Notes: generated from the sequence alone by a model not told the origin. Shown: positions 44,990 through 48,735, counted from the first letter of the stretch. The stretch is DNA of 64,000 bases from Cardiobacteriales bacterium (GCA_965215775.1 CBDCEG010000027.1:101860-165859); one strand, 5' to 3'. Translations and numbers: made by a program.

Positions 44990-46052
44990 AGATTCTACCT
45001 ACAAGTGCAACTTTTCAAGTTCAGCTTGAAAGACTTCATTTGGGGTTTTAAATCCTAGTCGTTTTCGTGGTCTATTATTAATAAGTTCTACAAAATAAGC
45101 AAGGTCTTCATCAGAAACATTATTAAAATCAGTGCCTTTGGGGATAAATTCTCGGAGCAAACCGTTGGTATTTTCATTAGTTCCTCTTTCCCAAGGTGAG
45201 TAAGCGTGTGCAAAATAAACATTCATTTTTACTTGTTTTTCAATCTCTTGGTGTAAAGAAAACTCTTTGCCATTATCGTATGTCATGCTTATTCGTAACT
45301 CATTTGGTAAGTCTTTGAAATCTTTAACTGTAGCTTCTAAAATAGCTTTTGCAGTTGATTTTTTCACTTTGGAAGCAATTAATTTACCACTTTTTCTTTC
45401 AACATTTGTAACTATCGCGCCTTGGTGATTTTTACCGACAATTGTGTCTCCTTCCCAGTGTCCAACTTCTTTTCTAAGCTCAATATTTTGCGGTCTTTCA
45501 TCAATCATTCTACGATCTTTTATTTGATATTTTTCCTTTCTATTATGTTGATATTTCTTACCTTTTCTTCTGAAATACATCTTAACTAATTTTGGGTGAT
45601 ACTTATAAACAAATTGATAAATAGTCTCGTGGCAAATCGATTCTTGCGCCTCCTCTCGCCACTTTCCAGAAATTTGTTCTGGCGACCAATGTTGCTCTAT
45701 TTTTATCAAAATATATTTCTCTAAAATACTATCAGGTAATATCCTAACATGCTTATTTGCAATAGATTTCCTCTTGGAAACTTTCTCCCATGCCTCTTCA
45801 CCAACAAAGGTTTCTGCGTTTTTATTATTTTTTATGCAGCGGTATATTGTAGTCTTATTTTTGCCTAGTTTTATCGCTATTTCACAAGGATTATAATTCT
45901 CCTCAAGCAATGTTTCAATTTTTGTCATATCAGTTCTGGTTAATTGTGTGTATTTTTTCATAATGTTATTATCTTAGTTAATAAAAATAAAAATAACTAG
46001 TTCCAAATTAAAACCTAAAAATAAAATTTAGTTGCACTTCGGTTTAGAAACC
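44990..46052 (-). mobile_element. IS30-family insertion sequence (boundaries approximate)
   Basis: Single 320-aa transposase ORF. Imperfect terminal inverted repeats share the core AAGTGCAACT (44990-45012 vs the reverse complement of 46030-46052). Confidence 0.75.
44999..45961 (-). CDS. IS30-family transposase
   Basis: 320 aa with an N-terminal HTH and DDE blocks (HWEGDTI, MTYDNGKEF, NENTNGLLREF). Confidence 0.9.
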   Translation of the reverse strand: MKKYTQLTRTDMTKIETLLEENYNPCEIAIKLGKNKTTIYRCIKNNKNAETFVGEEAWEKVSKRKSIANKHVRILPDSILEKYILIKIEQHWSPEQISGKWREEAQESICHETIYQFVYKYHPKLVKMYFRRKGKKYQHNRKEKYQIKDRRMIDERPQNIELRKEVGHWEGDTIVGKNHQGAIVTNVERKSGKLIASKVKKSTAKAILEATVKDFKDLPNELRISMTYDNGKEFSLHQEIEKQVKMNVYFAHAYSPWERGTNENTNGLLREFIPKGTDFNNVSDEDLAYFVELINNRPRKRLGFKTPNEVFQAELEKLHL

Positions 46053-46447
46053 AGGAAACAATTTAAAAAAACCACAGGTTTCCCTGTTCTCTTACTCGTA
46101 CTTTTTATGGAAGGATATATTTTTAAAAAATAATCTTCTGTTGCTTTATATGGATCATGAATTACTTCAAGTGTATTCTCATTTTGTCTTATTGTATGCA
46201 TTCCTGTTCCCATGTAGTGATACGATGAACCAGCAATAAGTAAATCGGAAAATACAATATTAGTACTAGAATTAGTATCATGTTTGAATTGTTCATATAC
46301 ACAGTGACTGAAGCCATATATTTTTAATTTATTTCTAGCGTTTATTGTATGCTCACTTGGTTCTATATTTTTGTCGGAACATGACAAAAAAATAAATGTA
46401 GATATTAATAAGCAACTTAAATTTAGTCTTTTTTTTGATTTTTTCAC
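46028..46447 (-). pseudogene. Small lipoprotein (two-Cys family B, copy 2), 3' end replaced by the IS30 terminus
   Basis: A GTG at 46447 gives KKSKKRLNLSCLLISTFIFLSC (lipobox). After ..VFLNCF the frame reads into IS30 IR sequence (LVSKPKCN stop). The first 23 codons in the ORF track are IS3-fragment sequence. Confidence 0.65.
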
Positions 46448-46476
46448 TTTATTTTTTTTAATGGTTATTAGCTGAC

Positions 46477-46550
46477 TGTAATGGTCTAATTTTATGGAAC
46501 ACTTTTTAAGCGACATTTATCATTCTATTAAATTTTTCATTTGGTGTCAT
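46477..46550 (-). mobile_element. 74-bp fragment of the IS3-family left end
   Basis: Identical to 800-873 of the full IS (TGTAATGGTCTAATTTTATGGAACAC... through ..TTGGTGTCAT). Confidence 0.9.
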
Positions 46551-46932
46551 TGAATTTTTGAGAGTTGTAAATTTTAAAACAATTTAAAAAGACTATAGGT
46601 TTCCCTGTTCTCTTGCTCGTAGCTTTTTTCATGGAATGATATATTTTGGAAAAGTAATATTTTGTTTCTTTGTATGGATCATAAATAACTTCAAATGTAT
46701 CTACATTTTTTTTTATTACATGCATTCCTGTTCCCGTCTGATGATATAACGAACTCGTAATAAGTAAATCAGAAAAGACAATGTCGGTACTAGAATTAAC
46801 ATCATTTTTAAACTGTTCAGATACACAATTACTTAAGCCATATATTTTTAATTTATTTCTAGCGTTTATTGTATGCTCACTTGGTTCTATATTTTTGTCG
46901 GAACATGACAAAAAAATAAATGTAGATATTAA
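46537..46932 (-). pseudogene. Small exported protein (two-Cys family B, copy 1), truncated at both ends
   Basis: The signal-peptide coding region is cut at 46932 (only ..LISTFIFLSC remains). The 3' end is fused to the IS3 fragment (..YNSQKFN then DTK stop). 46835-46932 is identical to 46311-46408. Confidence 0.65.
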
Positions 46933-46953
46933 CCTGATTTCTATACCTACACC

Positions 46954-47256
46954 TCATTGGTTTAAAAAGTATATCAATATTATTGTTAATATCCAAAGTC
47001 CTATACTAATGTATGAAATAAACTTATATTTTTTTAAATAATAAAATTGAGTAAAAAAAAGTAAGATATAAAAAAAAGTAATAATAATTAAATAGTCAAA
47101 ACCTATGCCCGCATGATCTATTTCCTGTTGCCCCGCCTCTTTAAAATAAATATATGAGAGCTTAATTCCTATAAAATAGTTTAGAGGTATTGATATAGCC
47201 CATACGAATAAAGAAGATAATAAAAATAGTACCCCATGCTTTACTTTATTTCCCAA
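46954..47256 (-). CDS. Small polytopic membrane protein (about 3 TM), unknown function
   Basis: 100-aa ORF with a TTG start 7 nt after AAGGAGG in the repeated leader. Confidence 0.5.
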   Translation of the reverse strand: MGNKVKHGVLFLLSSLFVWAISIPLNYFIGIKLSYIYFKEAGQQEIDHAGIGFDYLIIITFFYILLFFTQFYYLKKYKFISYISIGLWILTIILIYFLNQ

Positions 47257-48280
47257 AATAATACCTCCTTAAATTTTGTAAAATTTCATCAACCTTTATC
47301 TTTTGCTTCTCTATAAAAGCAGATAGATATAACTTAGAAGTGAAAGGGTTAAATATTTAAGCATTTAATCTTTCTCAATAGCTGGCACTAAGTTTAAAAT
47401 AAATTCATCAAATTCTTTTGAATTATAAATATCAATACAACTTATAAAGGTTATGGGTTTATTTGTAAACATAGATACCCCTTTTACTTTTTCAGACTCT
47501 TTATTTATATATTCATCTACTCTCTTCATGTCGGAACTCCCATAATATTTTATTATTTGATTATATCTACCCAAAGTATCTCCAATATCACGATTCATTT
47601 CATTATCTTCCAATAAATGCGTATTCATACAGACTCCAAAGCTATGATTCTTAAGCATTAACTGGTTTTTATCTAAAGTTATATGTGGATTGTAGAGGTT
47701 TTGAAGAAAAAACCCTATACTTGCCCCTAGTAATATAAAAAAAATATATTTCATTATTTTAGCTTTCAAAATAATACCTCCTTAAATTTTGTAAAATTTC
47801 ATCAACCTTTATCTTTTACTTCTCTATAAAAGCAGATAGATATAACTTAGGAGTGAAAGGGTTAAATACTTTAAGCATTTAACCTTTCTCAATAGCAGGC
47901 ACTAAGTTTAAAATAAATTTATCAAATTCTTTTGAATTATAAACTTTCATACAAGCCATAAAGATTAATGGTTTATTGGTAAACTTAGACACCATCACTA
48001 TTTTTTCATACTCTTTCTCTACATAATCATCCACTCTCACCATGTCAGAATATCCGTAATAATTTATCATTTGATGATATCCACCCAAAGCATCTCCAAT
48101 ATCACGAGTCATTTCATTATCTTTCAATATATGCATATTCATACAAGCTCCTAAGCTATGACTTTTAAGCATTAACTGATTTTTATCTAAAGTTATATGT
48201 GGATTGTAGAGATTTTGAAGAAAAAAACCTATACTTGCCCCTAGTAACACAAAAAAAACATATTTCATTATTTTAGCTCC
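47254..48280 (-). repeat. Tandem duplication, about 514-bp unit x2 (leader plus family-A gene)
   Basis: 47254-47766 and 47767-48280 are colinear. The ~110-bp leaders are nearly identical and the gene bodies are more diverged. Confidence 0.9.
47365..47769 (-). CDS. Small signal-anchored/exported protein, two-Cys family A, copy 2
   Basis: 134 aa with a hydrophobic N terminus, conserved GVC and ISC cysteines and the YNSKEFDEFILNLVPAIEK tail. The start is a TTG after AAGGAGG, or the ATG at 47754. Confidence 0.6.
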   Translation of the reverse strand: MKAKIMKYIFFILLGASIGFFLQNLYNPHITLDKNQLMLKNHSFGVCMNTHLLEDNEMNRDIGDTLGRYNQIIKYYGSSDMKRVDEYINKESEKVKGVSMFTNKPITFISCIDIYNSKEFDEFILNLVPAIEKD

Positions 48281-48298
48281 CCGATTGATAACCATCAT
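47879..48298 (-). CDS. Small signal-anchored/exported protein, two-Cys family A, copy 1
   Basis: 139 aa, paralog of 47365-47769. The start is either the ATGA overlap with the upstream gene at 48298 or the ATG at 48268 after GGGGAG. Confidence 0.6.
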   Translation of the reverse strand: MMVINRGAKIMKYVFFVLLGASIGFFLQNLYNPHITLDKNQLMLKSHSLGACMNMHILKDNEMTRDIGDALGGYHQMINYYGYSDMVRVDDYVEKEYEKIVMVSKFTNKPLIFMACMKVYNSKEFDKFILNLVPAIEKG

Positions 48299-48735
48299 AA
48301 ATTACTCCTCTTATTATAAAAAATCAGAAAGACCATAGGTATGAGACTTAAAAGATAAGCTATGTAAAAATGCTTTTGTTGTAGCATAAAATTAAATACT
48401 TCAATATCTAACCATGTATGTCCAAAGTGTTGAATGTATATATGCATAATACTATAGCTCGTATAGAACCAAAATAGACTATATAGTAAAAATATTGGAA
48501 TAATCCATAACTTACTTTTTTTCACTTTTAAATATAGGTAAGCAATAATAAAAGAAGGAATTATATTTATAATCACTATTTGTATAGTATTCCAAAGAAC
48601 ATTATCGTTTGTTACTTTATCTACATATAGACCAACTGTTTTAGGAATTAAAGGAACAATTATATCTATATAAATAAAGCTGTTGATACTACTAGCAATA
48701 GTTAGTAATATTATAAAAAAATTTATTTTTTTCAT
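48295..48735 (-). CDS. Small polytopic membrane protein (about 4 TM), unknown function
   Basis: 146-aa ORF, first gene of the cluster. Its upstream region resembles the leader upstream of the PAAR gene. Confidence 0.5.
   Translation of the reverse strand: MKKINFFIILLTIASSINSFIYIDIIVPLIPKTVGLYVDKVTNDNVLWNTIQIVIINIIPSFIIAYLYLKVKKSKLWIIPIFLLYSLFWFYTSYSIMHIYIQHFGHTWLDIEVFNFMLQQKHFYIAYLLSLIPMVFLIFYNKRSNL

Follow-up and report, generated by a model that had tools for sequence, protein, structure and literature searches.

Gene content of the islet and its kinship with Tai4/Rap proteins

A 64,000-nucleotide stretch of DNA from a Cardiobacteriales bacterium (GCA_965215775.1 CBDCEG010000027.1:101860-165859; this whole stretch is referred to below as the window) carries an islet of six small genes bounded by waaA (48818-50098) and the transposase gene (44999-45961) of an IS30-family insertion sequence (IS). 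An earlier note on this DNA had described six co-oriented small open reading frames (ORFs) at the site, and all six do lie on the minus strand, with the coordinates and lengths that it gave. In order of transcription they encode a 146-aa putative polytopic inner-membrane protein (4TM, for its transmembrane segments; 48295-48735), a 139-aa protein, A1 (47879-48298), its 134-aa tandem paralog, A2 (47365-47769), a 100-aa protein with three transmembrane (TM) segments (3TM; 46954-47256), and two lipoprotein-type proteins, B1 and B2, called as ORFs of 124 aa (46537-46911) and 162 aa (46028-46516). 4TM, A1, A2 and 3TM are intact, and B1 and B2 are pseudogenes; the 4TM stop codon overlaps the A1 start codon (ATGA). 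The islet is situated between waaA and queA in a low-GC Gram-negative bacterium, with waaA, lnt and corC on one side and a sigma-54 activator gene, recX, queA and a glutaredoxin-like gene on the other, and its GC content of 24-29% compares with a window mean of 29.4%. We consider it likely that these are immunity genes of type VI secretion systems (T6SS) residing without their effectors, with A1, A2 and the B1 and B2 pseudogenes all belonging to the Tai4/Rap family and 4TM being a probable immunity protein of another kind.

Families A and B are divergent members of the Tai4/Rap group by sequence, by predicted fold and by their conserved cysteines. A pattern common to both had been reported in the earlier note, and it is borne out by a cysteine pair and a KP..F..C..YNS motif that A and B share at 28-32% identity. 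The relationship extends beyond likeness of pattern: a B-type protein encoded outside the window, P0004, matches A2 at 3e-8 and A1 at 1e-7 in tblastn comparisons, and A and B are therefore homologous. The same note had guessed at immunity of the T6SS amidase type, a guess now substantiated by placement within Tai4/Rap through profile, predicted fold, disulfide cysteines and export signals. Matches to the Pfam Tai4 family (PF16695) by A1 (E 0.0029, 18.6 bits), A2 (E 0.0039, 18.2 bits) and B1 (E 0.14, 13.2 bits) take in almost all of the profile (for A1, positions 4-90 of its 92); all are below the gathering threshold of 27.1 bits, which serves as an operational cutoff and does not define the family biologically, and a Tae4-linked relative (locus L011) scores 28.0 bits. 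Neither PADLOC nor NCBIfam returned anything meaningful for any of the six islet proteins.

Word-index searches recovered only the query and its paralog for family A and the single outside protein P0004 for family B, and a profile of four sequences found nothing in the PDB, for which a larger family profile was required. An exhaustive hidden Markov model search with a profile of five sequences retrieved 55 proteins. PF16695 is matched by 21 of 58 aligned family members, with no other family recurring, and the 58-sequence profile, seeded from the window proteins, finds Serratia Rap2a (3ZIB) in the PDB at 9.3e-11, Salmonella Tai4 (4J30 and 4HFF) at 8e-8 and Rap1b (4AX2) at 9e-6. Two cysteines are present in at least 90% of the 58 members and in all four A and B proteins of the window (Cys52 and Cys116 in A1), and they align, with the same 60-residue spacing, to Rap2a chain residues C21 and C81, which form the intramolecular disulfide Cys42-Cys102 of that protein (PMC3852654). 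The conserved pair in families A and B is thus a candidate disulfide.

AlphaFold models of A1 (pLDDT 89.5) and of the B-type P0004 (pLDDT 89.8) are both helical bundles. The top 11 PDB matches of the P0004 model in Foldseek are exclusively Rap2a, Rap2b, Rap1b and Tai4, and the top seven of the A1 model are all Tai4 or Rap1b, the best being 4HFF_B (probability 1.0, TM-score 0.70, root-mean-square deviation 3.0 Å over 98 columns); across both models the matches have probabilities of 0.84-1.0 and target-normalised TM-scores of 0.48-0.74. The N-terminal anchors or lipoboxes noticed earlier are also there: hydropathy gives A1 and A2 one N-terminal hydrophobic segment each, and lipoboxes identified by inspection read F-L-S-C in B2 and F-V-S-C in P0004, the signal of B1 having been lost. 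Export to the periplasm is predicted for both families, A-type proteins by way of a signal peptide or anchor and B-type proteins as lipoproteins.

The gene neighbourhoods of homologs connect both families to toxins. Homologs that were never adjacent to a toxin would have spoken against the immunity assignment, and relatives of both types are found directly downstream of Tae4 genes. On five contigs the P0004 gene overlaps the stop codon of a 209-aa Tae4 gene (PF14113, E 3e-20), and this Tae4-Tai4 pair, as it occurs in L001, is the closest to family B. The A-like proteins P0044 and P0052, 36% and 28% identical to A1, each begin at the stop of a Tae4 gene, and the P0044 locus is flanked by a Rhs/PAAR-like toxin and VgrG. 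PAAR-Tae4-Tai modules are present at eight of 29 metagenome loci with B-type relatives. Most of the remaining loci carry orphan Tai genes, 12 of these orphan loci having DUF4123 and vgrG close by; L012 retains a full PAAR-Tae4-Tai module beside DUF4123 and vgrG, and L011 has DUF4123 only. This series, from complete modules to orphan Tai genes, looks like natural loss of the effector with retention of the immunity gene. A Tai4-family gene copy on a Microbulbifer plasmid is another orphan.

Two further observations concern these loci. The 137-aa orphan Tai4 genes near DUF4123 and vgrG (L013, L016, L018-L020, L022-L024, L026, L028, L030 and L032) lie on high-GC, Pseudomonas-like contigs, downstream of rlmJ where the upstream region is visible. 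One of the P0004 contigs, of 4.1 kb and from a Helicobacteraceae metagenome-assembled genome (module at L001 2016-4002), also has relaxase and MobC/NikA-like genes, and plasmid-borne spread of the L001 Tae4-Tai4 module across phyla is suggested.

The 4TM and 3TM membrane proteins

The 146-aa protein at the head of the islet had been described as having four TM segments; three of these are strong by hydropathy, and the fourth (approximately residues 76-100) is weaker and was recognised by eye only. It matches no family in Pfam, NCBIfam or PADLOC, and has ten homologs at 61-77% identity. Wherever the region upstream of a homolog is visible (L046-L052), the order is the same: a VgrG C-terminus, a DUF4123 adaptor, a 124-aa gene, a LysM protein of 368-389 aa, and the 4TM homolog beginning 2-3 nt later. 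The gene downstream varies, encoding either a CHAP protein or a DUF6402 protein, and because the upstream LysM gene does not vary it is the LysM protein that is the constant partner of 4TM; the LysM-then-4TM order is seen in four locus types. The proposal of the earlier note that a small polytopic protein might serve in immunity is thus backed, for the 146-aa protein, by gene context, and judged on this context the protein most likely confers immunity to a DUF4123-loaded LysM-domain T6SS effector. Acinetobacter has been described as possessing T6SS effectors with LysM domains as well as immunity proteins that contain TM segments (PMC6833914). Neither the PDB nor Pfam has a match for the C-terminal domain of the 389-aa LysM protein. 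Comparison of 4TM with its effector-linked homologs gives ratios of nonsynonymous to synonymous substitution (dN/dS) of 0.26-0.28.

The sequence immediately before the 4TM gene (48736-48765, minus strand) resembles the 3' end of the LysM effector genes. Over the 30 nt preceding the ATG, 22 positions are identical to L046, L050 and L052 and 20 to L051, declining to about 50% identity by 80 nt. These 30 nt, which resemble the closing codons, the stop and the ribosome-binding region of a LysM gene, may be a deletion scar.

The homolog loci also hold a further set of genes. In L046 (3614-4216, with equivalents in L047, L048, L050 and L052) a 200-aa CHAP protein with an N-terminal TM helix is encoded by a gene overlapping the stop of the 4TM homolog, followed by a gene for a LysM protein of 456-465 aa (annotated with DUF3289 in L050 and L052) and another for a small anchored protein. 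The LysM proteins encoded in L046 are not paralogous to each other, and the region of the CHAP and 456-465-aa LysM genes is probably a second effector-immunity module.

Hydropathy gives the 100-aa protein three strong TM segments, and it has no family match in Pfam, NCBIfam or PADLOC. The one homolog recovered, P0010, shares 95% identity with it and is encoded in a near-identical strain (L007, ENA sample ERZ25071447), on whose contig the phosphoenolpyruvate carboxykinase (PEPCK) gene is split into three ORFs. In L007 a 347-bp cassette containing the 3TM gene follows a gene for a 197-aa lipoprotein, which in the window sits at 35861-36454. Positions 1-1700 of L007 correspond to window positions 35847-37735 together with 46938-47284, at 98.6% nucleotide identity over 769 nt and 88% over the adjacent 529 nt; L007 does not have the gene for the 176-aa lipoprotein, and its 3TM cassette directly follows the 197-aa lipoprotein gene. 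Cassettes of the two T6SS-related islets have therefore been exchanged or rearranged between strains, and the 3TM gene appears to behave like a movable cassette. Searches of plasmids by tblastn with 3TM and 4TM gave no match. Nor is there detectable kinship between the two proteins themselves: the best match has an E-value of 0.003 over 26 residues, calculated with no correction for composition, and such weak matches are attributed to hydrophobic composition.

Downstream of the cassette L007 has the same junction motif as the window, followed by the first codons of a 4TM-like gene. In the window this motif (AAACCAAnGnGTGAATAGATATG, about 25 nt) precedes 4TM (48736-48765) and recurs in degenerate form after 3TM (46930-46960), and in L007 it stands after 3TM (1615-1645); the LysM effector genes that precede 4TM homologs carry a matching sequence at their 3' end. 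The motif could represent a recombination joint, or merely a conserved translation-initiation region. We raise, as a tentative proposal somewhat more likely to be wrong than right, that the 146-aa protein represents a new inner-membrane immunity family, its partner being a DUF4123-loaded LysM effector that is uncharacterised and has a C-terminal domain of no known family, and that 3TM is an immunity-type cassette moving between T6SS islets of near-identical strains by way of a AAACCAAnGnGTGAATAGATATG junction that doubles as the start region of the next gene.

Duplication and insertion within the islet

A1 and A2 are 75% identical, and the spacers that follow them are more similar still. The 109-nt spacer between A1 and A2 (47770-47878, minus strand) ends in AAGGAGG and a start codon, and it matches the 108-nt second copy, which here precedes the 3TM gene (47257-47364, minus strand), at 103 of 109 positions. 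The direct repeats D2 and D3 are spaced by 513-514 nt. Given this 513-514-nt repeat of an A gene with its spacer, the unit has been duplicated in tandem.

That the two paralogs are alike at the ends and diverged in the middle, as described previously, is reflected in dN values of 0.05 for residues 1-40 and 0.23 for residues 41-115, with a dS of about 0.26 that is equal in the two segments. For the full-length pair dN/dS comes to 0.60, with 0.20 for the signal region and 0.85 for the mature middle (residues 41-115). Low dN together with equal dS indicates that the N-terminus is held by purifying selection; gene conversion was considered as a cause of its conservation and rejected, dS there being the same as in the diverged middle. 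For the last 19 codons and the spacer gene conversion is possible. The mature surface may be either diversifying or relaxed, alternatives between which two sequences cannot discriminate. Every intact islet gene has dN/dS below 1, and pairs of B-type sequences give 0.22-0.32.

The two B genes have been inactivated by different elements. The earlier description of B1 as truncated at both ends is correct. The pseudogene (46558-46928, minus strand) has lost most of its signal peptide at the 5' end, where the last 12 signal-peptide codons are kept in frame behind the 3TM stop and the sole possible start is an internal TTG within the lipobox; at the 3' end it is cut after ...YNSQKFN, where 83 bp left over from the 3' terminus of an IS3-family element follow (46475-46557). 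This remnant is 97.6% identical to window positions 346-428 and 798-880, which comprise the 3' end of the transposase gene and the element terminus, and from it come the final three codons and the stop of the called B1 ORF as well as a spurious N-terminal extension of the B2 ORF. The IS3-family copies at window positions 1-2052 include orfA (1683-1988), orfB (829-1668) and a partial tandem repeat of the 3' part (the 346-880 region). B1 is 69-70% identical to P0004, and it shares 86% nucleotide identity with B2 over 300 nt.

B2 is 78% identical to P0004 over 120 residues, and its real start is probably the GTG at 46447, from which translation would begin MKKSKKRLNLSCLLISTFIFLSC with a textbook lipoprotein signal. 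Its 3' end had been thought to be replaced by the IS30 terminus. Instead, the 1069-bp IS30-family element (44987-46055, minus strand; transposase gene 44999-45961, with rve and HTH_38 domains) has inserted at codon 154 of the called ORF, leaving a lipoprotein-type Tai4/Rap 5' fragment of codons 1-154 (46056-46516, minus strand) and a surviving 3' fragment of the last 25 codons and stop (44905-44983, minus strand), whose translation is KIYNSKEFNNFIKKQDKYIKQYNTQ. The element has 25-nt imperfect inverted repeats (I6: 44988-45012 and 46030-46054) and is flanked by a TTT target duplication (46056-46058 and 44984-44986). Excision in silico of the element and one TTT fuses 46056-46516 with 44905-44983 into a single ORF of 179 aa (156 aa from the GTG), and the tail matches residues 125-147 of P0004 (tblastn, 74% identity, E 4.5e-6); B2 has therefore been split by insertion and not truncated by replacement. 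As a separate observation, the 197-aa lipoprotein gene and B2 share 88% identity in their 5' regions (46389-46455 in B2).

A copy of the IS30 element in L008 is 99.5% identical, and a search with the IS30 DNA otherwise gave only distant matches on plasmids. The transposase belongs to a cluster, formed at 90% identity, of 19 sequence variants, truncated ones included, that is represented on dozens of contigs belonging to the same assembly or assemblies; its multiplication indicates IS expansion.

Effectors missing from the window, alternative explanations and known immunity arrays

Homologs of Tae4, VgrG, DUF4123, the LysM effector, CHAP and Rhs proteins were not found in the 64-kb window. The earlier statement that cognate effectors are lacking thus stands for Tae4 within the window, with the amendment that a PAAR toxin gene does exist there: a 391-aa protein (38439-39614, minus strand) has an N-terminal PAAR domain (PF05488, E 3.3e-12) and a glycine-zipper-rich hydrophobic tail, with homologs of its C-terminal part on Ralstonia and Vibrio replicons. 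It is likely, from these features, to be a membrane-targeting T6SS toxin. Its gene is followed on the same strand by a 165-aa gene (37952-38449) and by three lipoprotein genes (37195-37779, 36570-37100 and 35861-36454), the 194-aa and 176-aa lipoproteins sharing a C-terminal motif, TMLLPKSEIL, and the whole has the appearance of another effector-immunity islet, separated from the array at its IS30 end by about 6.4 kb. Since a PAAR toxin is encoded in the window, the host probably possesses a T6SS or once did. ZapD, which is not known outside gamma- and betaproteobacteria, is also encoded in the window and points to a host from one of those groups; a Campylobacterota origin, considered on account of P0004 and the low GC content, was dropped for this reason. 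An Rfam scan of the window found no RNA, and a promoter and terminator scan was at background, with 24 sites where 26.5 are expected. No integrase or recombinase is present in the 43-52 kb interval, the only mobile elements being IS30 and the IS3 remnant, both gene-disrupting; association with an integrase or recombinase defines only the recombinase-associated (rAID) subtype and not orphan arrays in general.

The following course of events would account for the islet. By analogy with Rap2a and Tai4, the A and B proteins would be exported to the periplasm as small helical bundles locked by one disulfide, where they would dimerise and block the active site of incoming Tae4 gamma-D-glutamyl-meso-diaminopimelic acid DL-endopeptidases, thereby sparing the cell wall. 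The 4TM protein at the operon head would neutralise a LysM-domain, DUF4123-loaded T6SS effector, so that several specificities are clustered, namely Tai4 subtypes A and B together with a protein linked elsewhere to a LysM effector. The islet grew by tandem duplication of an A gene with its 109-nt spacer, and is now eroding, with the IS3-family remnant truncating B1 and IS30 splitting B2. We infer that the cognate effectors are absent from the entire genome, and A1, A2 and 4TM may, by the same analogy, still be expressed and protect against non-kin attackers.

Several points weigh against this explanation. None of the four A and B proteins reaches the Pfam Tai4 gathering score alone, B2 and P0004 have no Pfam match, and the Foldseek E-values are modest, from 0.005 to 0.03. 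The dN/dS in the A1/A2 middle is as compatible with relaxed constraint as with diversification, and 3TM has no T6SS-linked homolog. Finally, the absence of effectors covers 64 kb, and Tae4 genes may exist elsewhere in the genome.

The best-surviving alternative, which we regard as possible but less likely than not, is that the islet is a pure relic, the remainder of the host's own effector-immunity modules from which the effectors were deleted and which is drifting to loss while offering no current protection. That IS3 and IS30 events have already inactivated half of the four Tai4-like genes fits such a history, as do the high multiplication of IS30 in this genome, the fragmented PEPCK gene on the sister-strain contig, the dN/dS of 0.85 in the mature part of A1 and A2, and the scar of about 30 nt resembling a LysM effector 3' end before 4TM. 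However, 4TM, A1, A2 and 3TM retain intact frames and Shine-Dalgarno sites, with both cysteines in place, and dN/dS is 0.27 for 4TM, 0.30 for 3TM and 0.20 for the A signal region. Immunity genes are moreover commonly retained once the effector has gone, orphan Tai4 genes being stably kept beside vgrG in many Pseudomonas-like loci.

It is improbable, in our judgement, that the array is not orphan at all and provides ordinary self-immunity, its cognate Tae4 and LysM effectors being encoded elsewhere in the genome, for example by a vgrG or PAAR gene. The PAAR toxin with its glycine-zipper tail at 38439-39614 would agree with this, in that it makes a present or past T6SS of the host probable, and the 64-kb window is only a part of the genome, which has contigs of up to at least 250 kb. 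Against it, the effector lies immediately upstream of the immunity gene in every informative homolog locus, and homologs of Tae4, VgrG, DUF4123 and the LysM effector were not found in the window; word-index searches with A1 and B1 gave only the four window copies on the contigs of the genome, a result that is silent on effectors. A function apart from interbacterial antagonism, such as regulating the cell's own peptidoglycan hydrolases or envelope housekeeping, could be entertained from the location among waaA, lnt and corC and the sub-threshold individual Pfam scores, but is highly implausible given the tight linkage of homologs of both types to Tae4, PAAR, VgrG and Rhs genes, the match of fold and cysteine pair to Tai4/Rap, and a strain-variable, IS-ridden array unlike housekeeping genes.

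Taken as T6SS immunity genes without their effectors, the A and B genes can be compared with characterised members of the family. They resemble Salmonella Tai4 (STM0278; 4HFF, 4J30), Enterobacter cloacae Tai4 (4HFK), Serratia Rap2a (3ZIB) and Rap1a in being small exported helical proteins with one cysteine pair, in profile-level homology and the same predicted fold, and in having homologs directly after Tae4/Ssp amidase genes. They differ from the solved members in being only 10-24% identical to them, and no effector adjoins the window copies. B-type proteins are lipoproteins with an insertion of about 17 residues (G-x-G-x-H-x-I-x-Q-N-E-x-T-L-E) predicted to form a small beta excursion, and A-type proteins may retain an uncleaved N-terminal anchor.

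Serratia marcescens encodes two Tai4/Rap-fold proteins, Rap1b and Rap2b, without a cognate effector, for which protection against foreign Tae4 has been proposed (PMC3852654). Like the genes described here they have the Tai4/Rap fold and are retained without an effector of their own, whereas they lie in an active T6SS cluster beside Ssp1 and Ssp2 and not, as here, in a housekeeping region with half of the copies inactivated. The orphan Tai4 genes of Pseudomonas-like genomes, whose products are B-type homologs at 45-48% identity, likewise occur without Tae4, but are single, high-GC genes with a T6SS spike gene adjacent; the window array has no vgrG nearby.

SAIDI-1 of Salmonella Typhi is an orphan immunity islet (PMC7400221). 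The islet in the window resembles SAIDI-1, the acquired interbacterial defence (AID) clusters of Bacteroidales and the auxiliary-cluster arrays of Vibrio cholerae in grouping several effectorless immunity genes of different specificities, and some of those systems contain pseudogenes and mobile-element scars, as this one does. The window islet differs in being much smaller, with four Tai4-type genes and one or two membrane proteins, in having neither an integrase or recombinase nor contact-dependent inhibition immunity genes, in having arisen partly by local tandem duplication, and in that its protective role is predicted.

Orphan immunity arrays are already well documented, and that general picture is unchanged. 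At this locus, six genes that would be annotated as hypothetical become a testable interbacterial-defence locus. The Tai4/Rap family is extended by two divergent subtypes that are missed at current Pfam thresholds, one a lipoprotein with an insertion and the other short and possibly membrane-anchored, and a new candidate effector-immunity pair is nominated in the LysM protein and the 4TM protein. The homologs surveyed form a natural series in which immunity outlives the toxin, from the PAAR-Tae4-Tai4 module, through the orphan Tai4 gene, to pseudogenes disrupted by insertion sequences.

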